A stretch of DNA of 56,067 nt. Origin: Frankiales bacterium (GTDB lineage Bacteria > Actinomycetota > Actinomycetes > Mycobacteriales > SCTD01). A program made the translations under genes and the position numbers. The stretch spans positions 1-56,067 of the forward strand of contig JAOPVZ010000308.1 in NCBI GenBank assembly GCA_025965935.1, read 5' to 3'. The notes beneath the pieces were generated by a model, which was given only the letters and a program-made list of their open reading frames with translations, had not been told where the DNA came from and made no database searches. Positions 3,578 to 26,291 of this stretch are shown here, piece after piece (the stretch's first letter is position 1; each line of letters opens with the position of its first letter).

Positions 3578-4528
3578 GTGGAGATCGGTTACACCCTGAT
3601 GGGCGAGCAGCGCGGGCCGCGCGACCTCGTCGACGACAGCGTCCGGGCCGAGCAGGCCGGCTTCGACTTCCTGGTGGCCAGCGACCACTTCTCGCCCTGG
3701 CTGGAGTCGCAGGGCCACTCGCCGTACACCTGGACGGTGCTCGGCGCGGTCGCGCACGCGACCCAGCGCATTCCCTTCATGACCTACGTGACTTGCCCCA
3801 TCCTGCGCTACCACCCAGCCGTCGTCGCGCAGAAGGCAGCGACGCTGCAGCTGCTCTCGGACGGCCGGTTCTCACTCGGCCTCGGTGCCGGCGAGCAGCT
3901 CAACGAGCACGTGGTGGGCAAGGGCTGGCCGCCGGTGGACGTGCGCCACGAGATGCTCGCGGAGGCCGTCCAGGTCATCCGCTCTCTGTGGGGTGGCGGA
4001 TTCACGAACCTCCGCGGCAAGCACTTCCAGGTCGAGAGCGCGAAGCTCTACGACCTGCCCGAGGCCGCGCCACCGATCGGTATCGCCGCTTCGGGAGCGC
4101 AGTCGACAGCGCTGGCCGCGCAGCAGGGCGACTACCTGATCGCCACCGAGCCGAAGGCTGAGATCGTCCGCGCATATCGTGACGCGGGCGGCACCGGTGA
4201 CGTCATCGGCCAGTTCCCGGTCTGCTTCGGTGAGGACCACAAGTCGCTGCAGCTGCTGCACGAGCAGTTCCGCTGGATGGGGCTGGGCTGGAAGGTCAAC
4301 AGCGAGCTGCCGGGTACCGCGGCGTTCGACAGCGCGTCGCAGTTCGTCCGCGACGAGGACCTGGCACAGACCTCGGCGTGGGGAACGGACGTGTCGCGCT
4401 ACCAGGAGAAGGTCCAGGCGTTCGCTGACGCGGGCTTCACCAAGGTGGCACTGGTGCAGGTGGGCCCGGACCAGCAGGAGTTCTGCGACTGGTACGCCTC
4501 GGACCTCCGGCAGGCGATCGCGGCGTGA
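3578..4528 (+). CDS. F420-dependent LLM-class oxidoreductase, glucose-6-phosphate dehydrogenase-related family
   Basis: 316 aa. The motifs SDHFSPW and RYHPAVVAQ and the overall layout resemble mycobacterial Fgd-type luciferase-like enzymes. GAAGGAG lies 6 nt upstream of the GTG start. Confidence 0.8.
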   Translation: MEIGYTLMGEQRGPRDLVDDSVRAEQAGFDFLVASDHFSPWLESQGHSPYTWTVLGAVAHATQRIPFMTYVTCPILRYHPAVVAQKAATLQLLSDGRFSLGLGAGEQLNEHVVGKGWPPVDVRHEMLAEAVQVIRSLWGGGFTNLRGKHFQVESAKLYDLPEAAPPIGIAASGAQSTALAAQQGDYLIATEPKAEIVRAYRDAGGTGDVIGQFPVCFGEDHKSLQLLHEQFRWMGLGWKVNSELPGTAAFDSASQFVRDEDLAQTSAWGTDVSRYQEKVQAFADAGFTKVALVQVGPDQQEFCDWYASDLRQAIAA

Positions 4529-7081: not shown

Positions 7082-8032
7082 ATGACCGTGCCACTGGCCC
7101 TGGCTCCTGCTCTCGACGAGGCGCTCAGCACCGGCGCTCTCGAGCGCTTCGCCGATGCCGTGCCGCGCGACCGGCGGGACCGCGTTGACGTCCTGCAGAC
7201 GATCTACGACCTGCACACCGGCCCGCTGCAGGCCGTCGGCGACCGCGCCCGCTACCAGCACCACCCGGTCGTGGCGGGACTGAAGCAGCGCCTCGAGGCC
7301 GACTGGCTGCGGGAGCTCGCGGCCGAAGACGTGCCCGCGGAGTTCCGCGACCAGCCCGACGTGGTCGTCGCGATCCGCAGCATGGCAACCGTCGAGCGGC
7401 TGCCCCGCACGTACCGCTGGATCGCCGACGAGGCTTCCTGGCCGGAGGTCGTGCGGTTCCTGGCGATGGAGGGCGGACCCGACGCCGGCTTCGACGATTT
7501 GGTGGCCGTCTGCCAGGTCGGGCTGGCCGGTTCGGCGAAGCTGGAGCTGGCCCAGAACTACTGGGACGAGATGGGCAACGGACACCTCGATGCCGTGCAC
7601 ACCAACCTGCACGAGCAGATGGTGAGCGCCATCGACATGCCGCGGCTCGCGCGGGGTGACCTCCCCGTGGAGGCGCTGGAGCGCACGGCGCTGGGCGGTC
7701 TGCTGGCGACGAACCGCTGGCTGCAACCGGAGATGGTCGGCGCACTCGGCATGATCGAGCTGCAGGCCGGACCACGGTGCCGCAAGGTCGTCCAGGGCTT
7801 CGACCGGCTCGGCGCCCCTGTGGGTGCTTACCGGTTCTACGCCGAGCACGCCGACGTCGACCCGCGGCACGGCAAGGACTGGGTCGAGAAGGCGATCGCC
7901 CCGCTCGTCGCCGAGGACCCGAGCTGGGGACCACGGATCCTGCGCGGTGCCTGGTGGCGGCTCGTCCTCAGCCTGCGGTTCTTCGAGGCGGCCGAGTCGC
8001 TGCTGGTGCGCCGCGCCTCACACGCGGCGTGA
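7082..8032 (+). CDS. Haem-oxygenase-like, iron-containing redox enzyme family protein
   Basis: About 316 aa helical protein. The motifs YWDEMGNGHLDAVHTNL and FYAEHADVDPRHG resemble the Haem_oxygenase_2-type family. The start could be 7061 or 7082. Confidence 0.55.
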   Translation: MTVPLALAPALDEALSTGALERFADAVPRDRRDRVDVLQTIYDLHTGPLQAVGDRARYQHHPVVAGLKQRLEADWLRELAAEDVPAEFRDQPDVVVAIRSMATVERLPRTYRWIADEASWPEVVRFLAMEGGPDAGFDDLVAVCQVGLAGSAKLELAQNYWDEMGNGHLDAVHTNLHEQMVSAIDMPRLARGDLPVEALERTALGGLLATNRWLQPEMVGALGMIELQAGPRCRKVVQGFDRLGAPVGAYRFYAEHADVDPRHGKDWVEKAIAPLVAEDPSWGPRILRGAWWRLVLSLRFFEAAESLLVRRASHAA

Positions 8033-8536
8033 CCGCGCCACCAGGCGCAGCACCAGCGGTCCGACCAGCCAGAGAGCGAGCGCCGTCCCGCCGACCGCCG
8101 AGGCGGCCCAGCCGGCGGCGGTCCGACCGGCGACGACGTTGAAGACCAGCCCGTTGACGCCGACCATCGCCAGGCCGAGGAACACCGACCCGAGCAAGGC
8201 GCACCAGTGCGCTGTCGCGACCATGAGCTCGCGCTCGTGCTGCCGGAACAGCACCCGGTGCAGCGGCACGGGCGCAACGAGCAGCAGCGTGGCCAGCGAC
8301 GACAGCGCCACGGTGCCGAGGTACAGGTGCTTGTCGGTGTCGTCGAGCGTGGTGAACCGCTGCTGGAAGGGCAACGTCAGCAGGAAGCCGGTCAGCAGCT
8401 GGACACCGGTCTGCACCACGCGCAGCTCCTGGAGCAGCTCGCTCCAGTTGCGGTCGAGCGTCTGCTGCGGTGTCTCGTCAGGCCGGTCAGGTCGCACGGC
8501 ACCTGACTTCCCCCGGCACGCGCCGGGTATGTCCAC
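8018..8536 (-). CDS. DUF6328-like membrane protein
   Basis: RNWSELLQELRVVQTGVQLLTGFLLTLPF is followed by further TM segments, as expected for this family. The start is uncertain. Its 3' end overlaps the previous gene by 15 nt, convergently. Confidence 0.6.
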   Translation of the reverse strand: MDIPGACRGKSGAVRPDRPDETPQQTLDRNWSELLQELRVVQTGVQLLTGFLLTLPFQQRFTTLDDTDKHLYLGTVALSSLATLLLVAPVPLHRVLFRQHERELMVATAHWCALLGSVFLGLAMVGVNGLVFNVVAGRTAAGWAASAVGGTALALWLVGPLVLRLVARSRRV

Positions 8537-8554: not shown

Positions 8555-8824
8555 TCAGCTCGCGTAGCGGGCCGCCGAACGGGCCCGTGCCTTCGCCGCC
8601 TCGACTTCGCGATCCTTCGGCGGCGCCGTCGTCACGAGCTTGTCGAGAAGGGTCCTCGAGGCAGCGGACACGAGCTCGACGGCCTCCAGGAAGGCGGCCT
8701 CGTTGACCTGCGCGGGCTTGCTCGAACCGCTGATCTTCCGGACGTACTGGACAGCGGCAGCCCGCACCTCGTCGTCGGACACCGGCGGCTCGAAGTTGTT
8801 GAGCGGCTTGATGTTTCGGCACAT
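8555..8824 (-). CDS. DUF2277-like small protein
   Basis: 89 aa from the ATG at 8824 (MCRNIKPLNNFEPPVSDDEVRAAAVQYVRKISG...). The 338-aa ORF-track version is an overextension. Confidence 0.65.
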   Translation of the reverse strand: MCRNIKPLNNFEPPVSDDEVRAAAVQYVRKISGSSKPAQVNEAAFLEAVELVSAASRTLLDKLVTTAPPKDREVEAAKARARSAARYAS

Positions 8825-8956
8825 GCTGAGCAGCGTAAGCCCGTCGCGCTTCGGGCCAGAACACATGTCAGATGACAAAGGACCGCAGGCCTCGCGCTGC
8901 CGGCCGTCCAGACGTAACGTGGCCCGTCGGTGCCCCCCTGTCGCAGAGGAGGATCC

Positions 8957-9601
8957 ATGCACGCGATGCCGTTGCCCGTGCCGGTCGTCGCTCCGCGGAG
9001 TGACCTCGAAGTGCTGGTGGACCAGCTGGAGGGCATGCGAGCCTGGCACGCCGCCTTCCGGGCGCGCCTGGCGGCCGAGCAGCAGACGGCGACCACGACC
9101 CGCGAGATGCGGCTCGACGCCCGCCGCCGGATCGAGGCCCTCGAGCGGACCCAGGCGGCACTGCAGGCCCGGGCCGACCAGAGCGTGCGGCAGACCGTCG
9201 AGCTGCTCGCTGCGCGCCCGGCGCGCGCCCTGCTGGTCCACCGCAACGAGTGGATCCGCACCAAGGTGGGCCTGGGCCTGGAGGCGGAAGGAGTCCAGGT
9301 CCTGGCGTCGTTGGAGGACGGAGCGGACGGGCTTGGCTGCGCGATCATGGAGCAGCCCGACCTGCTCCTCATCGAGGATCGGTTGCCGTCGCTCCCTGGC
9401 CTCGAGCTGGCCAAGCAGGCGCGCGAGTTCGTGCCCCGGGCGGTGATCGCGGCTCAGGTGGAGGACGACCAGGGCGTGGCCGCCATGCTCGAGGCGGGGG
9501 CGCAGGCAGTGTTCAGCAGGCGGGTACCACCACAGCTGATGGCAGAGCAGGCGGCCGACTACCTGCGGCATGCCTCGGGCGGGCCGCTGCTCCTCACCTG
9601 A
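8957..9601 (+). CDS. Atypical receiver (REC-like) domain protein with N-terminal coiled coil, paralogue 1
   Basis: GAGGAGGA lies upstream of the ATG at 8957. The C-terminal half has a REC-like pattern (EQPDLLLIEDRLP) but HRNEW replaces the acidic pair. It is a clear paralogue of 20872-21525. Confidence 0.6.
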   Translation: MHAMPLPVPVVAPRSDLEVLVDQLEGMRAWHAAFRARLAAEQQTATTTREMRLDARRRIEALERTQAALQARADQSVRQTVELLAARPARALLVHRNEWIRTKVGLGLEAEGVQVLASLEDGADGLGCAIMEQPDLLLIEDRLPSLPGLELAKQAREFVPRAVIAAQVEDDQGVAAMLEAGAQAVFSRRVPPQLMAEQAADYLRHASGGPLLLT

Positions 9602-10961
9602 CGGCTCGGGTGACCGCGGGCTCGAGGTGCACCACCTTGCAGCGGGACAGTTCGTCGAGCAGTTCCGGCCCGTAGCCGAAGCCCGTGCCGCTGCCTCGTC
9701 CTGGCGTGGCCGCGCCTCCCGGCGCGCCGCCGAAGGCAGCGTTGACCTTCACGGTGCTCACCGGGAGCTCACGCACCGCCCGCTGAGCATGCTCCTGGTC
9801 GGCGGTGAGGACGACCGCGGCGAGCCCGTACCGGGACCGGCCTGCCGCCTGCAGCATCGCGTCGAAGTCAGGGAGGACCTGCACCGCCGCCACGGGCCCG
9901 AAGGTCTCGTCGGTCATCAGCCGCATCCCGTGATGGCAGCCGACCAGGACGGTGGGCGGGTACCACGCACCCGCGCCGCTCGGCACCTCGCCGCCCGTCA
10001 GCCGCCGAGCACCCGCGGCGACCGCCTCCGCGACATGGGCGTGCACCAGCTGGCGCTGCGAGCGGTCGACCAGCGGTCCGATCGAACGAGCGTGGGCCTC
10101 CGCGACAAGGGCTTCCAGGAAGGCCTCAGCCACGTCGGCGTGCACGTACACCCGCTCGATCGACACGCACACCTGACCGCTGTTGGCGAAGGCCCCCAGT
10201 GCCACCTGCGACGCGGCCCAGGCCGGGTCCACGTCCGCGTCGACCACGCAGGCGTCCTTGCCGCCGCCCTCGAGCACCGCCTTGGCGCCGCTGCGGGCGC
10301 ACGCCTCGGCGATGCCCCGGCCCGTCTCCGACGAGCCGACGTGGACCACCACGTCAACGCGCGGGTCGCTGCAGAGCTCGGCCCCGACCCGGCCGTCGCC
10401 CTGCACCACCTGCAGCACGTCGGCCGGGAGGTGCGTTGCCAGCACCTCGGCGGCGCGGCCAGCGGCGAGCGGCGCACGCTCGCTGGGCTTCAGCAAGACG
10501 GCATTGCCGGCCGCCAGTGCCGCGCCGACGTCCTGCAGCGAGATGGCGACCGGGTCGTTCCACGGCGTGATGACGGCGCAGACACCGCGGGGCTCCCAGA
10601 CCATGACGTCGGTGGCGGACCAGCTGCCCTGCAGGGAGCGCCCGCGGTGCAGCGGTGCCAGCTCGGCATAGGTCTCGAGGGAACCGATCCCGGCCAACAC
10701 CCCGCCGCGACTGTCCTGCAGCGGCTTCCCCATCTCGCGGGACTGCAGCTCCGCCAGCTCGTCGACCCGGTCGCGGAGCTCCCTGGCCGCCTCCTTGAGG
10801 GCGCCCGAGCGGTCGCCTGCCGACGTCCGGGCCCAGCCGGACGCCGCGGCGGCGGCACGGGCAACCCGGTCGCCGACGTCGGTCGTCGCGGTGACGACGC
10901 CCACGACGGTGTCGTCACGCGGGTCCACGACGTGCAGCTCCTGATCGAGGACTGTCGTCAT
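9594..10961 (-). CDS. Aldehyde dehydrogenase family protein
   Basis: 455 aa with an ALDH-like catalytic region (FANSGQVCVSIERVYV) and LEGGGKDA. Confidence 0.8.
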   Translation of the reverse strand: MTTVLDQELHVVDPRDDTVVGVVTATTDVGDRVARAAAAASGWARTSAGDRSGALKEAARELRDRVDELAELQSREMGKPLQDSRGGVLAGIGSLETYAELAPLHRGRSLQGSWSATDVMVWEPRGVCAVITPWNDPVAISLQDVGAALAAGNAVLLKPSERAPLAAGRAAEVLATHLPADVLQVVQGDGRVGAELCSDPRVDVVVHVGSSETGRGIAEACARSGAKAVLEGGGKDACVVDADVDPAWAASQVALGAFANSGQVCVSIERVYVHADVAEAFLEALVAEAHARSIGPLVDRSQRQLVHAHVAEAVAAGARRLTGGEVPSGAGAWYPPTVLVGCHHGMRLMTDETFGPVAAVQVLPDFDAMLQAAGRSRYGLAAVVLTADQEHAQRAVRELPVSTVKVNAAFGGAPGGAATPGRGSGTGFGYGPELLDELSRCKVVHLEPAVTRAVR

Positions 10962-10999
10962 CGGGATTCCTTCCTCAACAACCGGGGTAGCGGCTGCCG

Positions 11000-12013
11000 G
11001 TGAGCCTTCGCGTCCTGACGTGGCACGTGCACGGGTCCTACCTCCAGTACCTCAGCGCGGTGCCCGTCACGTGGCTGCTTCCGGTCCGGCCGGACAAGCA
11101 GCAGGGGTACGGCGGGCGGGGCGCGACCTTCCACTGGCCGGACAACGTCGTGGAGGTGCCGGCCGACGACGTGCCGTCCTGGGTGAACGGCGTGGACGTC
11201 GTCCTGACGCAGAGCCGGCACAACTGGGAGGTCGACCGGCACGAGCTGCTCGGTCCGCTGGCCCGCGACCTGCCTCGCGTGCACATCGAGCACGACCCGC
11301 CGCGGCACTGGCCCAACGCGGCGCTCCACCCCGTCCAGGACCCGACCGCCAGGCTCGTGCACGTCACGCCGTTCAACGCGCTGATGTGGGACAGCGGCAT
11401 CACCCCGAGCACCGTTGTCGAGCACGGCGTCGATGTGCCGCAGCTGCCATGGACGGGGGAGCACGACCGTGGCATCACCGTCGTCAACAACCTCTGGAGC
11501 CGCGGTCGCCGCCTCGGGCCTGACCTGTTCGAGGAGTTCGCGGGCCAGGTTCCCCTCGACCTCGCCGGCATGGGCGGCGAGCGCTGGCCCTCCTGGCTCG
11601 GCGACGTGCGGCTGGCGGAGCTGCACCGGCTGCTCCCGTCGTACCGGTTCTTCTTCAACCCGATCCGCTACACCTCGCTGGGACTGGCCGTGTGCGAGGC
11701 GATGGCCCTGGGACTGCCCGTCCTCGGCTTGGCGACCACCGAGATGGCCACGGCGGTGCAGAACGGCGTGAACGGCTACGTCGAGACGCGCCCGGATCGG
11801 CTGGTCGCGCACGCCCGCCGGTTGCTGGAGGACCCCGTCGAGGCAGCCGAGCTGTCCGCCGGCGCGGTCACCACGGCCCGGGAGCGCTTCGGGCACCAGC
11901 GCTTCGTCCAGGACTGGAGCGACGTGCTTCATCGCGCGGCCGCGAGCACGTCTGACGGGGTCAGCTCGAGCAGTCCAGGGTCCGGCTCCGGGGCGTCGTC
12001 GTCGTTCACCTGA
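11000..12013 (+). CDS. Glycosyltransferase, GT4/GT1-type
   Basis: 337 aa. The C-terminal signature YTSLGLAVCEAMALGLPVLG...NGVNGYVE is typical of retaining GT-B enzymes. Confidence 0.7.
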   Translation: MSLRVLTWHVHGSYLQYLSAVPVTWLLPVRPDKQQGYGGRGATFHWPDNVVEVPADDVPSWVNGVDVVLTQSRHNWEVDRHELLGPLARDLPRVHIEHDPPRHWPNAALHPVQDPTARLVHVTPFNALMWDSGITPSTVVEHGVDVPQLPWTGEHDRGITVVNNLWSRGRRLGPDLFEEFAGQVPLDLAGMGGERWPSWLGDVRLAELHRLLPSYRFFFNPIRYTSLGLAVCEAMALGLPVLGLATTEMATAVQNGVNGYVETRPDRLVAHARRLLEDPVEAAELSAGAVTTARERFGHQRFVQDWSDVLHRAAASTSDGVSSSSPGSGSGASSSFT

Positions 12014-12789
12014 CCACGCCAGAGCACCCGGTGCCGGTTGACGTCGGGCGGCCCCCACACCGCTGGCGACGTCGGTCCGAAGAGCAGCACGGAGGGGGTC
12101 CGGTAGGCGGTGGCGAGGTGGGCCACACCGGTGTCCGGCGCGACCACGAGGGCCGCCGTCGCGACCAGGTCGCACAGACCGTCCAGCGACGGTGAGAGCA
12201 CCCGGCCTTGGCCTGCCTGGCGCACCACCTCTGTGGCCCGCTGCTGCTCGCCGGGACCGGCCGTCACCAGTACCTCTGCGTGGTCCAGGCCCCGGACCAC
12301 CTCGGCCCAACGCTGCACCGGCCAGCGCCGCGAGGGCTTCGCCGCTCCGGGATGCACCACGACGTGACTGCCCCGGGGGCCACGGGCGGGAAGCAGCAGA
12401 TCGTCTGTGTCGCAGGGGATCCCGGACTCGGTGAGCAGCCGGCACCAGCGTACGACCTCGTGCTCGTCCGGCCTCCAGCCGCGGCCGTCCCGACCCCAGG
12501 CGAGCAGCCGGGCCGGCCCGGTCGCCTCGAGCAGCGCGGTGCTCTGCGGTCCGCGACCGTGCAGGTTGACCCCCAGCGCCGCGCCGTCGACCGAGGTAGG
12601 CAGCCGCTGCAGCGGGGCGGCGTCCACCAGCTCGTCGACGGCGCCGACCTGCGAGACGATCGGCCCCAGCGCCCGGGGGCAGGCCAGCTGGATGTGCGCC
12701 GTCGGGTGGGCGCGCCGCAGGCCGCGCAGGGCCGGCACGGCGGTGAGCAGGTCGCCGAGGCCCAGAGCGCGCAGGACGAGCACCCTCAT
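11929..12789 (-). CDS. Glycosyltransferase family 9 (heptosyltransferase-like)
   Basis: Starting at the ATG at 12789 gives MRVLVLRALGLGDLLTAVPALRGLRRAHP, the GT9 N-terminal signature. ATGA overlap with the upstream GT2. Confidence 0.75.
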   Translation of the reverse strand: MRVLVLRALGLGDLLTAVPALRGLRRAHPTAHIQLACPRALGPIVSQVGAVDELVDAAPLQRLPTSVDGAALGVNLHGRGPQSTALLEATGPARLLAWGRDGRGWRPDEHEVVRWCRLLTESGIPCDTDDLLLPARGPRGSHVVVHPGAAKPSRRWPVQRWAEVVRGLDHAEVLVTAGPGEQQRATEVVRQAGQGRVLSPSLDGLCDLVATAALVVAPDTGVAHLATAYRTPSVLLFGPTSPAVWGPPDVNRHRVLWRGQVNDDDAPEPDPGLLELTPSDVLAAAR

Positions 12790-13679
12790 CGCGACCGCCA
12801 CCAGCCCAGCAGCCACCAGCCGGTCGCAGCCTCGGGGATCGCGACGGACGTGGCGAGCATCGTGGCGACCTCGCGGGTCGTGCGCGGCCCTGGGGCGACT
12901 CGTCGTCGTGCGAAGTCACCCACCAGCAGGGCCCAGGTCGTCAGGGCGGCCCGCCGCCAGCGCGGGACGGCAGCGGCCAGCAGCGCGGCCGTCGTCGCCA
13001 GGTGCCATGGCCGCCTTCCGGCGGGGACCTGCGCGCGGTGCCGCCAGTCGGATCCGTGCTTGCGCCGCATCCGGACGTCGTCGGTGTTGCCGCGCTGGCT
13101 GCGGATGCTCTGCGTCCAGCGTGCCGGACGTACGGGATGCACGACCTGCCGTCGGCCGGTGACGATCTGCCAGCCCGCTGCCGTGACACGCAGCCCCAGG
13201 TCCGCGTCCTCCCGATAGGCGCGCGGGAAGCACTCGTCGAAGCCGCCGACCGTCTCGAGCGCACTGCGGCGGTAGGCGAGGTCGGCGGTCGCCCAGACCG
13301 CCGTCTCGAGCCCCTTGGTGGAGCGCTCCCAGTCCGTAGGTCGTTCGGAGGTGGGCACCGTGATGCGGCCCTGGACGCCGCCGACGTCCGGACCGGCCGC
13401 GTCGAGGTCGGCCTCGAGCGCGCTCACCCAGTCCCCAGGCGGCTCGACGTCGTCGTCGAGGAACGCCACCCACTCGCTGTCGGCATGCCGCCACCCGAGG
13501 TTGCGCGCGGCTGCGGGTCCGCGTCCGCCCGACCTGAGGACGGTCACGCCTTCGATGCTCAGTGACGGCCCATCCGGGCGGTCGTCCACCACGACGACCG
13601 GCACCTGGCCGACCACCGGTGCGAGGGCTCGGTGCAGCGAGGGCCGGCCCACTGTGGGGACCACGACGGTGATGGTCAC
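12786..13679 (-). CDS. Glycosyltransferase family 2
   Basis: The GTG at 13679 overlaps the carbamoyltransferase stop (GTGA). ITVVVPTVGRP, a DD motif and ARNLG are GT2-like. Confidence 0.75.
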   Translation of the reverse strand: MTITVVVPTVGRPSLHRALAPVVGQVPVVVVDDRPDGPSLSIEGVTVLRSGGRGPAAARNLGWRHADSEWVAFLDDDVEPPGDWVSALEADLDAAGPDVGGVQGRITVPTSERPTDWERSTKGLETAVWATADLAYRRSALETVGGFDECFPRAYREDADLGLRVTAAGWQIVTGRRQVVHPVRPARWTQSIRSQRGNTDDVRMRRKHGSDWRHRAQVPAGRRPWHLATTAALLAAAVPRWRRAALTTWALLVGDFARRRVAPGPRTTREVATMLATSVAIPEAATGWWLLGWWRSR

Positions 13680-15289
13680 GGCCACCGCGACCGCCGTACC
13701 GCGAAGGGACCGAGCGCCAGCAGGTCGACCGGACCGGAGCCGAAGCACTCCAGCGCGTCCCGGGGGTCGTCGACGATGGGGCGCCCGGCCGTGTTGAGGG
13801 AGGTGTTCACGACGACGGGCAGGCCGGTGCGACGCGCGAAGCCCTCGAGCACCCGAGCGACCAGCGGCTCCTCACGCCGGTCGACGGTCTGGATCCGGGC
13901 GGAGCCGTCGACGTGCGTGACGACCGGGATGCGGCCTCGCCAGTCGGGCGCGACGGCATGGGTGAAGAGCATGTACGGCGAAGGGACCGTGCCGGTGAAG
14001 ATCTCGTGCGCTCTCTCCAGCAAGACCATGGGGGCCACCGGCCGGAACTGCTCGCGGCCCTTCACGTCGTTCATTCGCTCGAGGTTCTTCTCGAAGCCCG
14101 GGTGGGCCAGCAGCGAGCGGTGCCCCAGAGCGCGGGGGCCGTACTCCGCGCGGCCTTGGAACCAGGCGACGATCCCGTCGTGGGCCAGGCACTCCGCGAC
14201 CTCCTCGGCGATGTCGCGCGGACGGTCGTAGGGCACACCGGCCGTCTGCAACCAGGCCTCGAGCTCGTCATCGGTCCAGGACCGCCCCAGGGCCGCCGTG
14301 CGCATCGGGGCCACGGGGTCACCCAGCGCGTGGGCCACGTGCATGGCAGCGCCGAGCGCGGTGCCGCTGTCACCGGCCGCCGGCTGCACCCACACCTGCT
14401 CGAAAGGGCCCTCAGCGGCGATCTTGGCGTTCGCGACGCAGTTGAGCGCGACGCCGCCCGCCATCGTCAGTGCCGTGTCGCCGGTCTGCCCGTGCAGCCA
14501 GCTGACCAGGTCGAGCAGCACCTCCTCCAGCCGCAGCTGCACCGTCGCGGCGAGGTCGGCGTCCCACTCGCCCGGCTTGCTGAAGGACCCCCACTCGACG
14601 GGCTCGACGGTGAAGCCGCCGTCGCCCGTGGGACGGACCAGCTCGCGGAACTCCTTGATCCAGCGCGGTTGGCCGTAGGACGCGAGCGCCATCACCTTGT
14701 ACTCGTCGCTCGAGCGGCGGAAGCCGAAGTGCTCGGTCAGCTCCTCGTAGAGCAGCCCGAGCGAGTGCGGCAGCTGCTGGGCGGCGAGGACGTCGAGGTC
14801 GCCGTCGACGCACCGGCCGGCCAGGTGCGAGGCAGTCTCCCCACGGCCGTCCAGGACCAGCACGGAGGAGCTGGGATACGGGGCGGCGAGCGCGGCAGAG
14901 GCCGCGTGCGCCAGGTGGTGCGGGACGTAGCGCACGGAGCCCGGGTCCAGACCCGGCAGCGCGGTCCGGAGGAACAGCGGCGCCCGTTCGGCGTACAGCG
15001 TGCGCAGTCCTTCCCAACCGTCGTCGACGACCGAGGTGTACGGCGGACAGAGCCCAGGGTCGTAGGAGTAGGCCACCGCGTCGAGGTCCTCGGGCGACAG
15101 CCCGGCCCTGGCCAGGCACCACGCGGCCGACTGCGTGGGGAGCTCCCAGGCCGCGAACGGGAGGTTGTCATGGCCGTGCTTGCGGCGGGTGAAGCGCTCT
15201 TCCTCGGCGGCGGCGACCACCTCGCCGTCGACGACGAGCGCGGCCGCCGGGTCGTGGAAGACGGCGTTCACGCCGAGCACGGCGCTCAC
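13676..15289 (-). CDS. Carbamoyltransferase (NodU/CmcH family)
   Basis: 537 aa. The N-terminus LGVNAVFHDPAAALVVDGEVVAAAEEERFTRRKH is characteristic of the family. Confidence 0.85.
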   Translation of the reverse strand: MSAVLGVNAVFHDPAAALVVDGEVVAAAEEERFTRRKHGHDNLPFAAWELPTQSAAWCLARAGLSPEDLDAVAYSYDPGLCPPYTSVVDDGWEGLRTLYAERAPLFLRTALPGLDPGSVRYVPHHLAHAASAALAAPYPSSSVLVLDGRGETASHLAGRCVDGDLDVLAAQQLPHSLGLLYEELTEHFGFRRSSDEYKVMALASYGQPRWIKEFRELVRPTGDGGFTVEPVEWGSFSKPGEWDADLAATVQLRLEEVLLDLVSWLHGQTGDTALTMAGGVALNCVANAKIAAEGPFEQVWVQPAAGDSGTALGAAMHVAHALGDPVAPMRTAALGRSWTDDELEAWLQTAGVPYDRPRDIAEEVAECLAHDGIVAWFQGRAEYGPRALGHRSLLAHPGFEKNLERMNDVKGREQFRPVAPMVLLERAHEIFTGTVPSPYMLFTHAVAPDWRGRIPVVTHVDGSARIQTVDRREEPLVARVLEGFARRTGLPVVVNTSLNTAGRPIVDDPRDALECFGSGPVDLLALGPFAVRRSRWP

Positions 15290-15969
15290 GGCCAGCTGCC
15301 TTCCCAGGAGCTGGTCACGACGAGCTCGCGCACCTCGCAGCCCGGCGGCTGCGTGAGGCAGTGCAGCACGGTGCGGGCGACGTCCTCCGGCCGGTTGAGC
15401 TTGGCGTCCGGGGGTGGCTTGTACTGCGCCTCGCGGTCGTCGAAGAAGGCGGTGTGCATGCCGCCAGGAGTCAGGAGGGTCACGCCGACCTGGCCCTTGA
15501 GCTCGCTCTGCAGCGCGCGGGTGAACCCGACGACCCCGAACTTGCTGGCGCAGTAGGCGGTGGCGTCAGGGAACACCCGGTGGCCGAGGGTGGAGGCGAC
15601 GGTGACGACCTTGCCCTTCGTCCGGCGCAGCGACGGCAGCGCCGCGCGGACCACGGCCGCGGTGCCCAGCAGGTTGACGAGGACCACGCGCTCCCAGGCA
15701 ATCGGGTCGACCTCGTCGAGCGGTCCGCAGACGTCTGTGCCGGCGGCGGTGACGACGCCGTGCAGTGGATGTTCGCCGACCAACCGCAGTACCGCTTCCT
15801 CCGCTGCCCTGCCTTCGGACAGGTCGACCACCTCGCTGCGGTAGCCCTCGACGGGCACCCGGTCCAGGGCGAGCACGGTGCCGCCCGCCGCGCGGACGGC
15901 AGCGGCGACGGCGGCACCGAGGCCGCTGGCCGCTCCGGTGACGAGAACGGTCCCGGGGTCGTCAGGCAC
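15286..15969 (-). CDS. Short-chain dehydrogenase/reductase (classical SDR)
   Basis: TGAASGLG cofactor motif and YCASK catalytic motif. 4-nt overlap with the downstream gene. Confidence 0.8.
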   Translation of the reverse strand: MPDDPGTVLVTGAASGLGAAVAAAVRAAGGTVLALDRVPVEGYRSEVVDLSEGRAAEEAVLRLVGEHPLHGVVTAAGTDVCGPLDEVDPIAWERVVLVNLLGTAAVVRAALPSLRRTKGKVVTVASTLGHRVFPDATAYCASKFGVVGFTRALQSELKGQVGVTLLTPGGMHTAFFDDREAQYKPPPDAKLNRPEDVARTVLHCLTQPPGCEVRELVVTSSWEGSWP

Positions 15970-17257
15970 GGCTTGCCTCTCGGATCAGGAGGGACGTGGA
16001 CCGGCCCTCGAGGTAGGGGAGCGCGACGGCCTGCCCGCCCCAGCGCTGGAGGACCTCTGCCTCGGCCAGCACGGCCCCGGCGTAGTCACCGCCCTTGGCC
16101 CAGACGTCCGGCCGGAGCTCCTGCAGTGCACGCACAGGGGTGTCCTCGTCGAAGACGACCACGTCGTCCACGCAGCCGAGCGCCAGGAGGACTCGGGCTC
16201 GGTCGGCCGCGGCTTGCAGAGGCCGGGAAGGCCCCTTCAACCGTCGCACCGAGTCGTCGGAGTTGAGCAGGACCACGAGGCAGTCCCCGAGGGCACGCGC
16301 CTGCTCGAGGACAGCGACATGGCCGGCGTGCAGCAGGTCGAAGCAGCCTCCGGTCGCAACAACCGTGCCCCTGGTCGCACGGGTGTGCGCCACCACGTCG
16401 ACCCCGTCGTGCGTGGTGGGTGCGTCGAGGGCGGCCGCTCCGCCTTCGGCGACGAACGCGGCGGCGGCAGCGACGGCACCGGACACCGCCTCGCTGACGA
16501 GGGCGCCATCGGCCAGGAGCCCGGCCGCGGTCGCAGCGAAGCGGTCACCTGCCCCGCACGGGTCCGCGCACGGGACGGCCGGTGCGGGGTAGACGGACGG
16601 GGTCCCGTCGCCCTGGACCAGCAGGGCACCACGGGCTCCGAGCGTCACGGCGACGGCACCTGCCCCCCATTCCGAGCGCAGCTCGGCGGCCCGTTGTGCG
16701 GCCTCGGCGAGCGACCCGGCGCCGGCTTCCGCCGCGTTGGGCGTGATGAGGACGCAGCCGGTCGTCGGACACGCCCCCCGGGGGTGGGGGTCCCAGACGA
16801 TCCGCCGACCGGCAAGCGCAGCCCGGAGCCGCGGCAAGGACGTCACGCCCCGCCCGTAGTCGGACACCAGGGTCTCGCCGGGCGGGAGCTCGCCGTCGAG
16901 GTCGCCCGTCAGGTGCGCCGCGCCCCTGTCCAGCCGAAGCAGCGAGCGGCCGCCGGACCTGACCCGGACCTTCTCGACCGTGCTCCCTTCCGCCCCGAGG
17001 TCAAGCAGCTGCACGCCGGCCTCGTCGAGGAGTGTGCGCAGCTCCTCACCCGCTGCGTCGCGGACCAGCGCGGTGACGAGCACGACCTCGCGACCGTCCC
17101 GCGCTGCCAGCAGCGCCGCCAGCCCGGCACCGCCAGGCCGGGCAAGGTCGGTCGGGTCGTCGAGAACGGGTACCGGCGCGTCCGGGCACAGCCGCTCGAC
17201 GCGGCCGACGAGGTCCCGGTCGAGCAGCGTGTCGCCGACGACGACGAGCGGCCTCAC
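15962..17257 (-). CDS. hldE: Bifunctional D-beta-D-heptose 7-phosphate kinase / D-beta-D-heptose 1-phosphate adenylyltransferase
   Basis: 431 aa with an N-terminal pfkB-type sugar kinase and a C-terminal cytidylyltransferase-fold domain carrying GGCFDLLHAGH. Confidence 0.85.
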   Translation of the reverse strand: MRPLVVVGDTLLDRDLVGRVERLCPDAPVPVLDDPTDLARPGGAGLAALLAARDGREVVLVTALVRDAAGEELRTLLDEAGVQLLDLGAEGSTVEKVRVRSGGRSLLRLDRGAAHLTGDLDGELPPGETLVSDYGRGVTSLPRLRAALAGRRIVWDPHPRGACPTTGCVLITPNAAEAGAGSLAEAAQRAAELRSEWGAGAVAVTLGARGALLVQGDGTPSVYPAPAVPCADPCGAGDRFAATAAGLLADGALVSEAVSGAVAAAAAFVAEGGAAALDAPTTHDGVDVVAHTRATRGTVVATGGCFDLLHAGHVAVLEQARALGDCLVVLLNSDDSVRRLKGPSRPLQAAADRARVLLALGCVDDVVVFDEDTPVRALQELRPDVWAKGGDYAGAVLAEAEVLQRWGGQAVALPYLEGRSTSLLIREASRA

Positions 17258-17844
17258 AGGGCCACCGGATACGGATCAGCCACGCCCAGCGCCACATCGA
17301 CCGCTGCGCACACCAGGTGCACGGCGACCTGGTGGACCTCTTGCACGGTCGCGGTGGCAGGAGCGTCAACAGTCAGGCACTCGTCGGCCAGCTGCTGCAT
17401 CGGCGAGCCCTCTCGGCCTGTCATGGCCCAGACGATCAGGCCCCGGTCCTGGGCGGACCGCATCGCGGCGAGCACGTTGCCGCTGGACCCGCTCGTCGAG
17501 AGCCCGAGGAAGACATCACCCGGCCGCCCGTGCGCCTCGACCTGGCGCGCGTAGCCGGCCCCCCAGCCGTAGTCGTTGGCGATCGCGGTCAGCGAGGACG
17601 TCTCGGCGTGCAGTGCGATGGCGGACAGGGCCGGCCGGTCGTCGCGGTAGCGCCCGACGAGCTCGGCGGTGAGGTGCTGGGCCTGAGCCGCGGAGCCGCC
17701 GTTGCCGGCTGCGAGCAGCCGGCCGCTGCCGATGAGGACCCTGGCCAGGTGCGTCCCCCAGCGATCCAGGAGGTCCGTGTCGAGCCCGGGCAGCGCGCGG
17801 GCGAGAGCCAGCACGTGCTGCCGGCCGGAGAGCAGCTGGGTCAC
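17254..17844 (-). CDS. gmhA: Phosphoheptose isomerase (SIS domain)
   Basis: The GTG at 17844 overlaps the upstream stop (GTGA). GNGGSAAQAQHLTAEL is a SIS/GmhA signature. The ORF-track N-terminal extension was rejected. Confidence 0.8.
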   Translation of the reverse strand: MTQLLSGRQHVLALARALPGLDTDLLDRWGTHLARVLIGSGRLLAAGNGGSAAQAQHLTAELVGRYRDDRPALSAIALHAETSSLTAIANDYGWGAGYARQVEAHGRPGDVFLGLSTSGSSGNVLAAMRSAQDRGLIVWAMTGREGSPMQQLADECLTVDAPATATVQEVHQVAVHLVCAAVDVALGVADPYPVAL

Positions 17845-19058
17845 GGGAGCACCTCCGAGGTCAGGGTGCGGCGGGCGAGCAGCAGGTGGTAGGTCGCCAT
17901 GGTCTGCTCGGCGACGCGGCTCCACGTGAAGCGCCGCCGGACCCGCTTCACACCGGCGGCTCCGAAGGCCGCTCGTCGAGTCGGGTCGTCGAGGAGCTCG
18001 CCCATGGCACAGGCCAGCTCGACGGGGGACCGGGGAGGGACGAGCAGCCCGGTCTGCCCGTGCACCACCGTGTCGCACAGGCCGCCGACTGCCGTGCCCA
18101 GGATCGGGACACCGCAGGCCATCGCCTCGAGCGGGACGATGCCGAACGGCTCGTACCAGGGTGCGCAGGCGACGGCGTCCGCCGAGCGCAGCAGCGCGGG
18201 AAGCTCGTCGCGACAGACCCGGCCCCTGACCTGCACCTGGTCGGCAACACCCAGCTCTTGGGCCAGCCGGTTGAGGCGCTGCACCTCCTGGTCGGTGTCG
18301 AGGCCGCTCGGGTCCGGACCGCCGGCGACGACCAGCTCCACGTCGTCGCGGCCCAGCAGGCCGAGCGCCTCGATGACGTTGCCGACGCCCTTGCGTTCGA
18401 CCAGCCGGCCGACCGACACGACCCGGTGCGGCCGGGCGGGCGCCTCACGGGGACCGTCGGGGCGGAAGACCGTGGGGTCGACGCCGCACGGCACCACCGT
18501 CACCCGGTGAGTCGGGGCCCCGAGGCGCCGCAGCTCGAAGACCTCGTCGCTGCAGGTGGCCAGCACCCGGTCGACCTCATGCACCAGATCGCGCTCGATG
18601 CCCTCGCGCTCCGGCGGACTGGTGTCGCGAGTCCCCTGGTGACGTCGCTTGACGACGCCCAGCGCGTGAAACGTCATGGCGACCGGGATGTCGAGCTGCC
18701 TGGCCGCCTGCAGCGCCGCCCAGCCGCTCATCCAGAAGTGCGCGTGGACGAGATCGGGCCGCTCGTGCTCCCAAGCCCGGCGCAGCTCGTCGGCGAAGGC
18801 CGGCATGTGGGCGAGCAGCTCGTCCTTGGCTATGTGCGCAGGTGGCCCCGCCGGCACGTGGTCGACGGACACCCCGGGCGACAACGCGACCCGGCGTGGG
18901 AGGAGCCGGTCGTCGCGTCGGGTGTGCACCGTGACCTCGGCACCTCGGCGCGCGAGCGCCGTCGAGAGCGCGGCGACGTGCACGTTCTGCCCACCTGCGT
19001 CCACGCCACCGAGTACCGCCAGCGGGCTCGCGTGCTCCGACACCATGGCGATCTTCAC
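17841..19058 (-). CDS. Glycosyltransferase family 4
   Basis: Starting at the GTG at 19058 (GTGA overlap) gives VKIAMVSEHASPLAVLGGVDAGGQNVHV. The C-terminal motif PWYEPFGIVPLEAMACGVP is typical of GT4. Confidence 0.8.
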   Translation of the reverse strand: MKIAMVSEHASPLAVLGGVDAGGQNVHVAALSTALARRGAEVTVHTRRDDRLLPRRVALSPGVSVDHVPAGPPAHIAKDELLAHMPAFADELRRAWEHERPDLVHAHFWMSGWAALQAARQLDIPVAMTFHALGVVKRRHQGTRDTSPPEREGIERDLVHEVDRVLATCSDEVFELRRLGAPTHRVTVVPCGVDPTVFRPDGPREAPARPHRVVSVGRLVERKGVGNVIEALGLLGRDDVELVVAGGPDPSGLDTDQEVQRLNRLAQELGVADQVQVRGRVCRDELPALLRSADAVACAPWYEPFGIVPLEAMACGVPILGTAVGGLCDTVVHGQTGLLVPPRSPVELACAMGELLDDPTRRAAFGAAGVKRVRRRFTWSRVAEQTMATYHLLLARRTLTSEVLP

Positions 19059-20077
19059 GCGCTCAGCTCCAGCTCCAGCGCGGCCAGCGCCGCGATGACG
19101 TCGTCGTGCGCAAGGTCCTCCAGGCACGGGTGGCCGGGCACCGGGCAGGCTCGGGCCCGGGTACCGCGACAGGCGGCCCACTGGTCGCCGAGCACGACGC
19201 ACGGCACGCCCCATGGCTTCCACCTCTCGACAGGCACCACCGGCGAGAACAGGGAGACCACCGGCGCGCCGACGGCCGCCGCCAGGTGCGCTGGTCCGGT
19301 GTTGCCGACGACGACCGCGGTGGCCCGTCGCAGGACGTCGGCCAGCTCCGCGAGGCTCGTCCTACCCCCGAGGTCGGTGGCCTGGTCCCCGCTGACCTCC
19401 TGGGTGAGCTGCATCTCGTGGGGTCCACCGGTCACGACCACCCGCCGACCGAGCCCGGTCAGCCGGCAAACGAGCTCGCGCAGCCACGCTGAGGAGGTTG
19501 CACGGCTAGGTACCGAGGCGCCGGGATGCACCACCACGTAAGGCGATGAGCCCGTCAGGTGGCTGGCGCTGGGAAGCGGTCGCCGGACGGCGAGCCGGTT
19601 GTCGAACGGGTCGCCGGCCGAGGGGTAGCCGGCCGCCTCGACGAGGGACAGCATCCGCTGGACCTCGTGCAGGCCGCGCTCCGGCGGCCGGTGCCGCAGA
19701 TCGAGCAGCGAGCCCGGGTAGTCGTGGCTGATGGCGCCGACCCACGGCACCCCCGCCAACCTGAGCAGCAAGGCCGTGGGCAACGGGCTCTGCGAGGCAG
19801 AGGTCAGCACGAGCGCCGCCTCAGGTCGGGTTTCCTGGAGGCGAGCAACCGTCTCGCCGACGTCCGCGGGGTCCACCGGCTGCGGCTCGGGGTCGACCCA
19901 GGGACACCGCCAGACGATCACCTCGTCCACCCCCGGCAGCAGCCGCGCAGCGGCTTTGCCGCGCGGTCCGCACAGCAGCAGCAGCCTGTCGCAGCCGCGG
20001 CGCACCGCACGCAGCGCAGGTCCGGACAGCAGGACGTCACCGTCACTGTCGAGCCGCGCCACCAGCACGGTGCTCAT
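19055..20077 (-). CDS. Glycosyltransferase family 9 (heptosyltransferase-like)
   Basis: The ATG at 20077 overlaps the gmhB stop (ATGA). MSTVLVARLDSDGDVLLSGPALRAVRR is GT9-like. Confidence 0.75.
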   Translation of the reverse strand: MSTVLVARLDSDGDVLLSGPALRAVRRGCDRLLLLCGPRGKAAARLLPGVDEVIVWRCPWVDPEPQPVDPADVGETVARLQETRPEAALVLTSASQSPLPTALLLRLAGVPWVGAISHDYPGSLLDLRHRPPERGLHEVQRMLSLVEAAGYPSAGDPFDNRLAVRRPLPSASHLTGSSPYVVVHPGASVPSRATSSAWLRELVCRLTGLGRRVVVTGGPHEMQLTQEVSGDQATDLGGRTSLAELADVLRRATAVVVGNTGPAHLAAAVGAPVVSLFSPVVPVERWKPWGVPCVVLGDQWAACRGTRARACPVPGHPCLEDLAHDDVIAALAALELELSA

Positions 20078-20613
20078 GGGGCACCAAGGAGGATGTCGAC
20101 CGCCTCGTCGAACCTGGTGGCCACCGCGGGAGCAGTGCTGATCTCCTCGACCCGGGTGGCCTCGGTCGGGACCAGGACCGAACGGGCGCCCACGGCAGCT
20201 GCGGCCTCCACGTCCGCACCGATGTCGCCGATGACCGCGCACCGCTCAACGGCGACGCCCAGCAGCTCCGCGGCTCTGCGGAGCAGCCCGGACGCCGGCT
20301 TGCGGCAGCCGCAGCCGTCGTCCCGACCGTGCGGGCAGATGACGAACGGTCCAAGCGGACCGAGCAGCTGGTCGAGGCGCCGGTTCACGGCGTCGACCTG
20401 CTTGCCGGTCAGCAAGCCGCGCGCGATGCCGCTCTGGTTCGACACCACCGCCGTCGGCACTCCTGCCGCCCGCAGCCGGGCAAGTCCCTCGGGCACGCCG
20501 GGCAGCACGGCGACCTTGTCCGGATCGCCGTTGTACGGCACATCAGCGACGAGCGTGCCGTCCCGATCGAGCAGGACGGCCGCAGGGGGCTGCACAAGCG
20601 GCATGGGCGGCAC
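20074..20613 (-). CDS. gmhB: D,D-heptose 1,7-bisphosphate phosphatase (HAD-IIIA)
   Basis: DRDGTL motif I, SNQSG, and the CGCRKP zinc-loop motif typical of GmhB. Confidence 0.8.
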   Translation of the reverse strand: MPPMPLVQPPAAVLLDRDGTLVADVPYNGDPDKVAVLPGVPEGLARLRAAGVPTAVVSNQSGIARGLLTGKQVDAVNRRLDQLLGPLGPFVICPHGRDDGCGCRKPASGLLRRAAELLGVAVERCAVIGDIGADVEAAAAVGARSVLVPTEATRVEEISTAPAVATRFDEAVDILLGAP

Positions 20614-20654: not shown

Positions 20655-20871
20655 TTCTCCTTTACCTGCAGGCAAACCGGAGACGCGCTGGTGCCGACGG
20701 ATCACCGAACGTGGTATCACGCCAGAAGCGGGTACCAGGATGGGGCAGCTCGGAGAGAGCCGTGGCCGCGACCCGAACGGCGCCGGCCGTGACAGAGGCA
20801 GGATCGCCGCAACCGACCGGACTTGCCGTCGCGCGGGAACCGCATTTTCCCGCCCGTCACCAGGAGCCCCT

Positions 20872-21525
20872 GTGAGGCACCCGACGAGCACCACCGACCT
20901 TGCCATCAGCACCCATGACCTGCCGTTGGGCAGCCGGCGACGCGGCCTCGACCTCGTCCAGCGCCAGCTCGTCGCTGTCGAGGCGTTCACACGGGATCGG
21001 GTGAAGGCGCAACGGGCGCTCGAGGTCACGGCGCGCACTCGCGAGACCAGGATGGACGTCGTTCGCCGCCTCGATGTGCTGCGGCGCGAGCAGGAGATGC
21101 TCGTGGCCCGAGCCCACCAGCAGCTCGGCGAGACGGGCGACCTGCTCAGGGCGCCATCGGGGCGCCGGGCCGTCATCGCCCATCGGAACGCGTGGTTCGC
21201 CAGCAAGCTCGCCGAGCTGCTCGCCCAGGCCGACGTTCAGCTGCTCGAGCGCGTGGACAACGGAGCCGACGCGGTCGGTCTCGTGGTCGCCGAGCAGCCT
21301 GACCTGCTCTTCGTGGAGGACAGCCTGCTCATGGTGACCGGTGACGAGGTCATCCAGGAAGCACGGCGCTTCTGCCCGAGCACCCGAATCGGCGCGCGGG
21401 TCGAGTACGACGAGCGGGTCGGTGTCCTCTTGGACGCCGGCGCTGACATGGTCGCCACCCGCCAGGTTCCTCCACTGCGGGTCGCGCAGCAGCTACTCGC
21501 GCTCGTCGGGACCCCCGCAGGTTGA
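20872..21525 (+). CDS. Atypical receiver (REC-like) domain protein with N-terminal coiled coil, paralogue 2
   Basis: CAGGAG lies 5 nt upstream of the GTG at 20872. Shared blocks with 8957-9601 include HRNAW/HRNEW, NGADAVG/DGADGLG, EQPDLLFVED/EQPDLLLIED and LDAGADMV/LEAGAQAV. Confidence 0.6.
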   Translation: MRHPTSTTDLAISTHDLPLGSRRRGLDLVQRQLVAVEAFTRDRVKAQRALEVTARTRETRMDVVRRLDVLRREQEMLVARAHQQLGETGDLLRAPSGRRAVIAHRNAWFASKLAELLAQADVQLLERVDNGADAVGLVVAEQPDLLFVEDSLLMVTGDEVIQEARRFCPSTRIGARVEYDERVGVLLDAGADMVATRQVPPLRVAQQLLALVGTPAG

Positions 21526-26251: not shown

Positions 26252-26267
26252 GCTCGCCGGCTGCACA

Positions 26268-26291
26268 ATGCCGGGAAGGATGCCGGGAAGG
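26268..26291. repeat. Perfect tandem duplication of the 12-mer ATGCCGGGAAGG
   Basis: Read directly: the units occupy 26268-26279 and 26280-26291, in the gap upstream of the GT4/debranching-type pair. Confidence 0.9.

Follow-up and report, generated by a model that had tools for sequence, protein, structure and literature searches.

Among sugar nucleotides, ADP-heptose counts as a hallmark of lipopolysaccharide (LPS) in Gram-negative bacteria and is also viewed as an innate-immune signal. A cluster with genes for heptose enzymes, the cwg operon of Streptomyces coelicolor (sco6179-6190), has reportedly been known since 2002 from the work of Hong, Paget, and Buttner. It is a target of sigma-E and is induced by vancomycin (Tran et al. 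2019, PMC6767563), and a 2026 paper described cwgA as salt induced (PMC13011467). Its published annotation lists cwgB, cwgC, cwgG, and cwgJ as "transferases," cwgD as a "dehydratase," cwgE as a heptosyltransferase, cwgH as a phosphoheptose isomerase, and cwgI as a bifunctional synthase/transferase (PMC5839063, PMC5882110). Here, we describe a nine-gene cluster on the minus strand of contig JAOPVZ010000308.1 (assembly GCA_025965935.1) from a Frankiales bacterium; the whole stretch of 56,067 nucleotides, with a G+C content of 72%, is referred to as the window. Judged by gene tables and by Streptomyces loci, not by direct alignment with sco6179-6190, the cluster is the predicted ortholog of the cwg operon, and it probably directs the synthesis of a short carbamoylated heptose oligosaccharide that is most likely associated with the cell envelope. 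An earlier note on this DNA had mentioned similar streptomycete clusters without an assigned product, a description that fits the cwg operon: no paper defining its product was found in the literature up to 2026, the review by Chandra and Chater does not mention it, and the papers on umbrella-toxin receptors deal with teichuronic and teichoic acid and not with cwg.

Relationship to the cwg operon and conservation of the cassette

Gene calls were re-derived with Pfam and NCBIfam profile searches, which reproduced the nine-gene order given in the earlier note (Table 1). The open reading frames (ORFs) run from 20613 to 11929, show actinobacterial codon bias, start with ATG or GTG throughout, and contain no internal stops. 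Their Pfam order is HAD hydrolase, Glyco_transf_9, Glyco_transf_4 plus Glycos_transf_1, SIS, PfkB plus CTP_transf_like, adh_short, Carbam_trans_N/C, Glycos_transf_2, and Glyco_transf_9; the proteins are hereafter called GmhB, GT9a, GT4a, GmhA, HldE, SDR (short-chain dehydrogenase/reductase), CarbT (carbamoyltransferase), GT2, and GT9b, with GT standing for glycosyltransferase. The junction overlaps of 4 or 8 nt listed in that note were all found again by direct reading: seven of the eight, including the gmhB/GT9a junction, are 4-nt ATGA or GTGA start/stop overlaps, and the hldE/SDR junction overlaps by 8 nt. Every junction is covered, with 95 to 100% identity, by contig pieces from four independent soil metagenomes (long pieces only; 20- to 24-nt matches at contig ends were disregarded). 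Therefore, the operon arrangement is not an assembly artifact and exists in nature. DNA repeats near the cluster were short chance matches, and no sign of a mobile element was seen. The nine-gene operon is one translationally coupled transcription unit. At its distal end, Pfam recognized the opposing GT4-type gene (GT4b) and the aldehyde dehydrogenase (ALDH) gene that had also been pointed out before. The GT4b and GT9b genes are convergent, and their 3' ends overlap by 85 nt within the Ser/Gly-rich tail of the GT4b protein; the ALDH gene is divergent from the GT4b gene, with a gap of 38 nt.

In Streptomyces, the loci L081 and L082 contain genes for an epimerase, CarbT, GT2, HAD, GT9, GT4, GT4, SIS, HldE, and GT9 with consecutive 4-nt overlaps, a layout shared by L077 and L078, and the gene order of the Streptomyces locus agrees with the published cwgB-to-cwgJ annotation. 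HisB-like HAD phosphatases were formerly annotated as "dehydratase." The window cluster and the cwg operon have the CarbT, GT2, HAD/GmhB, GT9, GT4, GT4, GmhA, HldE, and GT9 families as well as the runs of 4-nt overlaps in common, and the window proteins are approximately 50 to 65% identical to their Streptomyces orthologs. However, CarbT-GT2 stand at the head of the cluster in Streptomyces and after the SDR gene in the window, and the window GT4b gene is displaced, inverted, and located beside the ALDH gene. In addition, a classical SDR gene follows hldE in the window, whereas none is found in the Streptomyces cluster, and the cwgA-type extended-SDR epimerase/dehydratase is absent from the window. 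In L081, a second block (14362-18299, minus strand) comprising an epimerase gene, a third GT9 gene, and two GT2 genes lies approximately 2 kb past the cwg genes, beyond an MFS transporter gene and a DUF2795 gene, which suggests that the heptose-related locus of Streptomyces is larger than the cwg operon alone.

An HldE profile scan with one genome per GTDB species yielded 369 confirmed relatives, and the best 80 loci were analyzed. These 80 stem from Frankiaceae and other Mycobacteriales metagenome-assembled genomes (MAGs), Geodermatophilaceae, Micromonosporaceae, Pseudonocardiaceae, Nocardioidaceae, Streptosporangiales, Streptomycetaceae, Intrasporangiaceae, Acidimicrobiales, Thermoleophilia, and two Dormibacteraeota MAGs. 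Gene counts (Table 1) cover the 61 of the 80 loci with enough flanking sequence, and the clustering of neighbor families covers all 80; several large "families" obtained by clustering neighboring ORFs were antisense shadow ORFs and were discarded. As judged by tblastn with the window proteins, the order of the cassette is kept in Actinomycetes, Acidimicrobiia, Thermoleophilia, and Dormibacteraeota, the common order being CarbT-GT2-GmhB-GT9a-GT4b-GT4a-GmhA-HldE-SDR-GT9b. The window has GT4b removed from its usual site between GT9a and GT4a; in L002, GT4b is found at the operon head, adjoining an ALDH gene, and the gene order of the window with CarbT-GT2 after SDR was seen again in L006. Because gene order recurs in most of the 61 loci and the Streptomyces ortholog has a run of 4-nt overlaps, the arrangement is far beyond chance. 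The closest relatives, L001 and L004, hold just GmhB-GT9-GT4a-GmhA-HldE-SDR, and since they carry those six genes only, GmhB, GT9, GT4, GmhA, HldE, and SDR are taken as the putative six-gene core. A comparison of synteny across Actinobacteria, as proposed in the earlier note, thus showed the cassette to be conserved; the cluster is not peculiar to this genome, as clusters of this kind are said to have been known since 2002 and occur phylum-wide.

The same breadth bears on the idea that the cluster is a specialized-metabolite pathway diverting ADP-heptose to a small bioactive molecule, comparable to septacidin or hygromycin B. Septacidin biosynthesis in Streptomyces is fed by ADP-heptose (PMC9978623; PMC11461863), and septacidin and hygromycin B share with the window the formation of an activated heptose from sedoheptulose-7-phosphate in an actinobacterium (PMC9978623); moreover, TobZ/NovN-type carbamoyltransferases are typical of antibiotic pathways. 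However, the septacidin and hygromycin B clusters are strain specific, and their heptose is tailored by aminotransferases and epimerases and attached to a base or an aminocyclitol, whereas the window cassette occurs throughout the phylum and is made up mainly of GT9, GT4, and GT2 enzymes. It is near-universal in Streptomyces, its order is kept in Dormibacteraeota and in no fewer than three classes of actinobacteria, and an aminotransferase, an N-glycosyltransferase, an acyltransferase, a resistance gene, and a pathway regulator are all absent from the cluster. A specialized metabolite as the product is therefore highly improbable.

TABLE 1 Predicted genes of the cluster and associated genes in the window, with the number of related loci (of 61) in which each family was counted
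Gene	Predicted product	Position	Strand	Profile evidence	Loci (of 61)
gmhB	GmhB, HAD-IIIA phosphatase	20074-20613	-	Pfam/NCBIfam	57
GT9a	Putative heptosyltransferase, 340 aa	19055-20077	-	PF01075, E 8e-23	58
GT4a	Retaining GT4 glycosyltransferase related to MshA and sucrose-phosphate synthase, 405 aa	17841-19058	-	Glyco_transf_4+Glycos_transf_1	58
gmhA	Sedoheptulose-7-phosphate isomerase, SIS, 196 aa	17254-17844	-	Pfam/NCBIfam	57
hldE	Bifunctional heptose-7-P kinase/heptose-1-P adenylyltransferase, 431 aa	15962-17257	-	PfkB+CTP_transf_like	
SDR	Classical SDR, 227 aa	15286-15969	-	adh_short, E 9e-32	53 (directly after hldE)
CarbT	O-carbamoyltransferase, TobZ/NodU/NovN family, 537 aa	13676-15289	-	Carbam_trans_N+Carbam_trans_C	33 (always adjoining GT2 gene)
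GT2	GT2 inverting glycosyltransferase, soluble, 297 aa	12786-13679	-	PF00535	37
GT9b	Second putative heptosyltransferase, last operon gene, 286 aa	11929-12789	-	PF01075	54
GT4b	Second GT4-type glycosyltransferase, opposing, 337 aa	11000-12013	+	Glycos_transf_1 C-terminal domain	54 (inside cassette)
ALDH	Aldehyde dehydrogenase, 455 aa	9594-10961	-	PF00171, E 1e-112	21 (adjoining cassette)
GT2c	Possible accessory glycosyltransferase, 276 aa	25421-26251	+	PF00535	14 (homologs neighboring cassette)

Heptose enzymes, glycosyltransferases, and likeness to the LPS inner core

For the three putative heptose enzymes, the top-ranked NCBIfam models were GmhB, GmhA, and HldE, all with scores below the equivalog cutoffs. 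GmhB matched NF006506 best (114.7 bits versus a cutoff of 178), had the GmhB proteins of Bordetella, Mycobacterium tuberculosis, and Escherichia coli as its best PDB matches (E 2e-22), and retains DRDGT together with the zinc-binding CPHx6CxC motif (CPHGRDDGCGCRKP). GmhA scored 175.6 bits with NF010546 (cutoff, 276) and 170.9 bits, also below the cutoff, with TIGR00441; it matched 12 solved phosphoheptose isomerases in the PDB (best E 1e-40), and the GNGGSA, AQHxxxEL, STSG, and QEVH motifs with their catalytic and metal residues are kept. HldE aligned over its full length with NF008454 (251 bits versus a cutoff of 521), its transferase domain (domain II) scored 178 bits with TIGR02199 (cutoff, 181.5), its PDB matches included HldC (5X9Q, E 2e-35) and Burkholderia HldA (4E84, E 6e-20), and it carries GAGD and FDLLHAGH (HxGH) motifs. 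In BLASTP comparisons with E. coli K-12 proteins drawn from the annotated genome, identity was 35% for GmhB (E 4e-23), 38% for GmhA, and 34% over 462 aa for HldE (E 3e-55). The Streptomyces orthologs are named heptose-1-P adenylyltransferase by NCBI. Some relatives have GmhA and HldE joined in one protein of approximately 710 aa with SIS, PfkB, and nucleotidyltransferase domains (P0078, P0109, and P0116; L003 9251-11386), which backs a functional link between the two enzymes. The gmhA, hldE, gmhB, and GT9 calls of the earlier note survived the profile, PDB, and E. coli comparisons, and the profile searches gave no reassignment, though the scores stayed below the cutoffs; as predictions from sequence, the GmhA/HldE/GmhB pathway assignments stand.

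A tblastn search of the entire 56-kb window at an E value of <1e-3 (the rest of the genome lay outside this search) found no extended-SDR epimerase/dehydratase of the HldD or cwgA type, and the SDR of the cluster had no BLASTP match to E. coli HldD, in line with the lack of an hldD-type epimerase remarked on earlier. With HldD absent from the window, the D,D form of heptose would therefore be used. The SDR was considered as a stand-in for HldD, and no evidence was obtained in either direction. A heptose route without LPS also exists in the GDP-D-glycero-alpha-D-manno-heptose pathway (GmhA, HddA, GmhB, and HddC) of Gram-positive S-layer glycans and M. tuberculosis, and M. tuberculosis GmhB (4PNH) was among the best structural matches of the window GmhB. 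There, the enzymes are a GHMP kinase and a GDP-forming nucleotidyltransferase, whereas the window encodes HldE, a fusion of PfkB kinase and adenylyltransferase characteristic of the ADP-beta route.

The NCBIfam matches of GT9a were limited to LPS heptosyltransferase I, II, and III models, all below the cutoff. It matched 3TOV and WaaC in the PDB, was 26% identical to E. coli WaaF (E 3e-9, BLASTP), and carries an N-terminal DGD motif. GT9b scored 79 bits with the Heptosyltransferase I model, below the cutoff, and aligned with E. coli WaaC from residue 1 (BLASTP, E 7e-14); Asp13, Glu222, Asp261-Thr-Gly, and His266 are kept, and Lys192 is changed to Arg. From WaaC structures, we take Asp13 to be catalytic and Asp261 and His266 to bind heptose. 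One alternative assigns a different acceptor to these enzymes, namely, that they heptosylate proteins in the manner of TibC and Aah and that the cluster serves protein glycosylation. E. coli has enzymes of the GT9 fold that transfer heptose from ADP-heptose to proteins (aah, PMC11461863), and the cluster encodes no lipid-linked machinery. However, a comparison of GT9a and GT9b with all PDB chains retrieved WaaC, WaaF, and 3TOV only, with TibC absent at an E value of ≤1e-3, which sets them apart from the TibC/Aah autotransporter heptosyltransferases. In addition, the presence of a carbamoyltransferase and three more glycosyltransferases implies that an oligosaccharide is made, which differs from mono-heptosylation, and no conserved candidate substrate protein adjoins the cassette. 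We consider protein heptosylation to be very unlikely.

GT4a scored 258 bits with the MshA model TIGR03449 (cutoff, 462), and its best PDB matches were sucrose-phosphate synthase (SPS) of Thermosynechococcus elongatus (6KIH, E 6e-64) and MshA of Corynebacterium glutamicum (3C4Q, E 2e-52). The MshA phosphate/inositol acceptor ligands Lys78, Arg154, Asn25, and His133 are kept, and two MshA phosphate ligands are altered (Tyr110 to Phe and Thr134 to Ala); GT4a also shared 28% identity with E. coli WaaG over the C-terminal half of the latter. In GT4b, Pfam recognized a Glycos_transf_1 C-terminal domain. GT2 showed weak MftF/EpsD-like NCBIfam matches and no predicted transmembrane segments. CarbT matched TobZ (E 2e-85, both parts), NovN, and GdmN in the PDB and has the two-domain architecture of a Kae1-like and a YrdC-like part. 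The SDR has both the cofactor motif TGAASGLG and the catalytic S...YCASK motif, and a PDB search with it returned no match at an E value of <1e-18. For the ALDH, no specific NCBIfam equivalog cutoff was reached.

In the inner core of Pseudomonas LPS, WaaC and WaaF add two heptoses, the GT4 enzyme WaaG adds the next sugar, and WapO carbamoylates heptose II (PMC8005017). The toolkit of the window, with two GT9 enzymes, a GT4 enzyme, and a NodU-type carbamoyltransferase as in Pseudomonas, parallels this set, and the analogy suggests a carbamoylated heptose oligosaccharide as the product. With the Gram-negative inner core pathway at large (E. coli GmhA/HldE/GmhB/HldD and WaaC/WaaF/WaaG), the cluster shares a predicted four-activity route to ADP-heptose, the two GT9 enzymes with WaaC residues kept (aligned for GT9b), and the GT4 partner. 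However, the window lacks HldD, so that D,D-heptose and not L,D-heptose would be expected, and the cluster is without 3-deoxy-D-manno-octulosonic acid (Kdo)/lipid A genes, heptose kinases, WaaL, and MsbA; no Kdo/lipid A genes were found in the scanned parts of the window. The cluster works like the LPS core pathway and is not a member of it, since HldD and Kdo/lipid A genes are missing and the GT9 enzymes are just 22 to 26% identical to the E. coli enzymes. Since the actinobacterial host is a monoderm, the acceptor must differ from that of LPS.

Proposed product, acceptor, and location

From the gene context, the two soluble GT9 enzymes would transfer heptose from an ADP-heptose donor, and the two GT4 enzymes and GT2 would add further sugars. 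The TobZ/NodU-type enzyme would O-carbamoylate one sugar hydroxyl, much as heptose II is carbamoylated at O-7 in the LPS core of Pseudomonas, and the classical SDR may catalyze a redox reaction of either a sugar or the acceptor. The predicted product is a short, carbamoylated, heptose-containing hetero-oligosaccharide of approximately 3 to 6 sugars that would be built within the cytoplasm or on the cytoplasmic side of the membrane, onto an acceptor that is not encoded by the cluster. All eleven cluster proteins were predicted to be soluble, with no transmembrane segments. Because the proteins lack such segments, export families are not conserved, and the relatives of GT4a act on phosphorylated small acceptors, assembly would be cytoplasmic. 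The product most likely ends as an envelope-associated glycoconjugate; this putative location is favored because cell wall antibiotics induce the S. coelicolor ortholog through sigma-E.

The same data can also be read in favor of a soluble cytoplasmic heptose glycoside or oligosaccharide (for instance, a compound for stress protection or storage, or a small molecule with a sugar decoration) instead of a cell wall polymer. GT4a would then glycosylate a phosphorylated small acceptor, a HAD phosphatase would take off the phosphate, and elongation would be left to the GT9 enzymes. We regard this scheme as unlikely, although several observations agree with it: no membrane or export component is conserved in the 80 loci and the proteins are predicted to be soluble, SPS and MshA (the closest solved relatives of GT4a) use sugar- or inositol-phosphate acceptors and four MshA ligands are kept, and a minimal GmhB-GT9-GT4a-GmhA-HldE-SDR version exists. 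Moreover, stress-type genes (Mn catalase, ChaB, DUF2795, trehalase-like GH15, and aldehyde dehydrogenase) abound in the neighborhoods, and a salt response has been described in the literature for a heptosyltransferase gene of Frankia as well as for the Streptomyces cwg gene. However, two of four MshA phosphate ligands are changed in GT4a, induction by sigma-E and vancomycin points to the envelope, and we know of no heptose-containing compatible solute. The assembly of the LPS core and of phosphatidylinositol mannosides also uses soluble or peripheral glycosyltransferases without cluster-encoded exporters, and a missing transporter is therefore weak evidence.

Several results weigh against our preferred reading of an envelope-associated, carbamoylated heptose oligosaccharide. 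None of the heptose enzymes and GT9 proteins reached the NCBIfam equivalog cutoffs, and the kinase domain of HldE scored 119.6 bits versus a cutoff of 345; the function of these proteins is therefore assigned by homology and conserved motifs and not by equivalog-level identity. CarbT-GT2, GT9b, and GT4b are missing from some relatives (L001 and L004), and owing to this patchiness, the product probably differs among lineages. A sigma-E motif (AAC-N15-19-CGTC) was not found in the 400 nt upstream of gmhB, but the same search was also blank upstream of the cwgA homolog of L081, which makes it a weak test. No heptose-containing primary glycoconjugate from an actinobacterium was found in the literature searched. 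Finally, unbiased clustering of coding-like ORFs in the 80 loci revealed no priming transferase, flippase, ABC exporter, polymerase, or ligase conserved alongside the cassette, which distinguishes it from Wzx/Wzy- or ABC-dependent glycopolymer clusters. With no conserved membrane or export families and only soluble proteins, an envelope localization is thus without support from the sequence itself. Of the uncharacterized heptose-containing cell-envelope glycan or glycoconjugate proposed in the earlier note, the heptose glycoconjugate was upheld, and the cell envelope part is an assumption.

The recurrent extra neighbors in the 80 loci were topoisomerase IB, an extended-SDR epimerase, extra GT2 genes, and stress-type genes. 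In the window, the only nearby membrane protein is encoded at 21563-23368 (plus strand), adjoining the upstream region of the operon; it is polytopic, with approximately 600 aa, a C-terminal soluble domain, and no Pfam match, and in other loci it does not accompany the cassette. On a larger scale, the cassette could represent an ancient, phylum-wide "LPS-inner-core-like" module of monoderm Actinomycetota that also occurs in Dormibacteraeota and that builds a carbamoylated heptose oligosaccharide on an acceptor other than lipid A, from a six-gene core with lineage-specific add-ons. Its product would be either a never-isolated class of primary glycoconjugates or a cytoplasmic stress oligosaccharide. 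We put this wider proposal forward tentatively and with some doubt.

Neighboring genes and meaning for Actinomycetota

The cluster is flanked by a pair of paralogous genes (8930-9601 and 20740-21525, both on the plus strand; 38% amino acid identity, E 4e-38), whose products consist of a helical N-terminal part and a degenerate REC domain without the usual acidic pair. The gene at 20740-21525 is divergent from gmhB, with an intergenic distance of 126 nt, and its protein could be a lineage-specific regulator; neither gene was found beside the cassette in any of the 80 loci. In 23 of these loci (for example, L001 5427-6467, L003 4784-6085, L004 5274-6320, and L033 13171-14154), and not in the window, the cassette is directly adjoined by a gene for a bacterial type IB DNA topoisomerase. 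Its side varies among families: in Frankiaceae-type MAGs, it lies upstream of gmhB, and in Micromonospora, it lies downstream of GT9b.

A second sugar operon (25421-29677, plus strand) comprises GT2c, a GT4 gene at approximately 26280-27443, and a GDE_N_bis/MGH1-like glycoside hydrolase gene from 27440, the start of which forms an ATGA overlap with the GT4 gene. GT2c is 42 to 50% identical to the two GT2 genes that accompany a third GT9 gene and an epimerase gene beside the Streptomyces cwg cluster. Because GT2c homologs often neighbor the cassette elsewhere, this operon may be an accessory module of the heptose cassette. The ALDH gene is a frequent divergent neighbor of the cassette, with a putative role in the pathway. 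Stress- or dormancy-type genes recur near the cassette, as in the flanks of L063, L024, L033, and L043; they encode Mn catalase, ChaB, DUF2795, Holin-X, a zinc-dependent alcohol dehydrogenase, ALDH, a GH15 trehalase-like protein, a STAS-sigma factor, and a luciferase-like monooxygenase. Further genes of the window, at 85-3185 (minus strand), 3578-4528 (plus strand), 8018-8536 (minus strand), and 8555-8860 (minus strand), encode a GH65 phosphorylase and HAD phosphatase, DUF6328, and DUF2277 proteins.

To the literature on cwg, this analysis adds the phylum-wide modular conservation of the cassette, the putative six-gene core that contains an SDR, the absence of genes devoted to export, and the likeness to the carbamoylated core of Pseudomonas. 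Together, its breadth and modularity, the missing export machinery, and the Pseudomonas parallel narrow the target to a short carbamoylated oligosaccharide that would contain D,D-heptose. The S. coelicolor ortholog was among the first known targets of the sigma-E cell envelope stress response, and the question of the product is better approached in Streptomyces than in the uncultured soil organism from which the window stems. The conservation of a pathway consuming ADP-heptose throughout Actinomycetota implies that there is a heptose glycoconjugate still awaiting chemical description.

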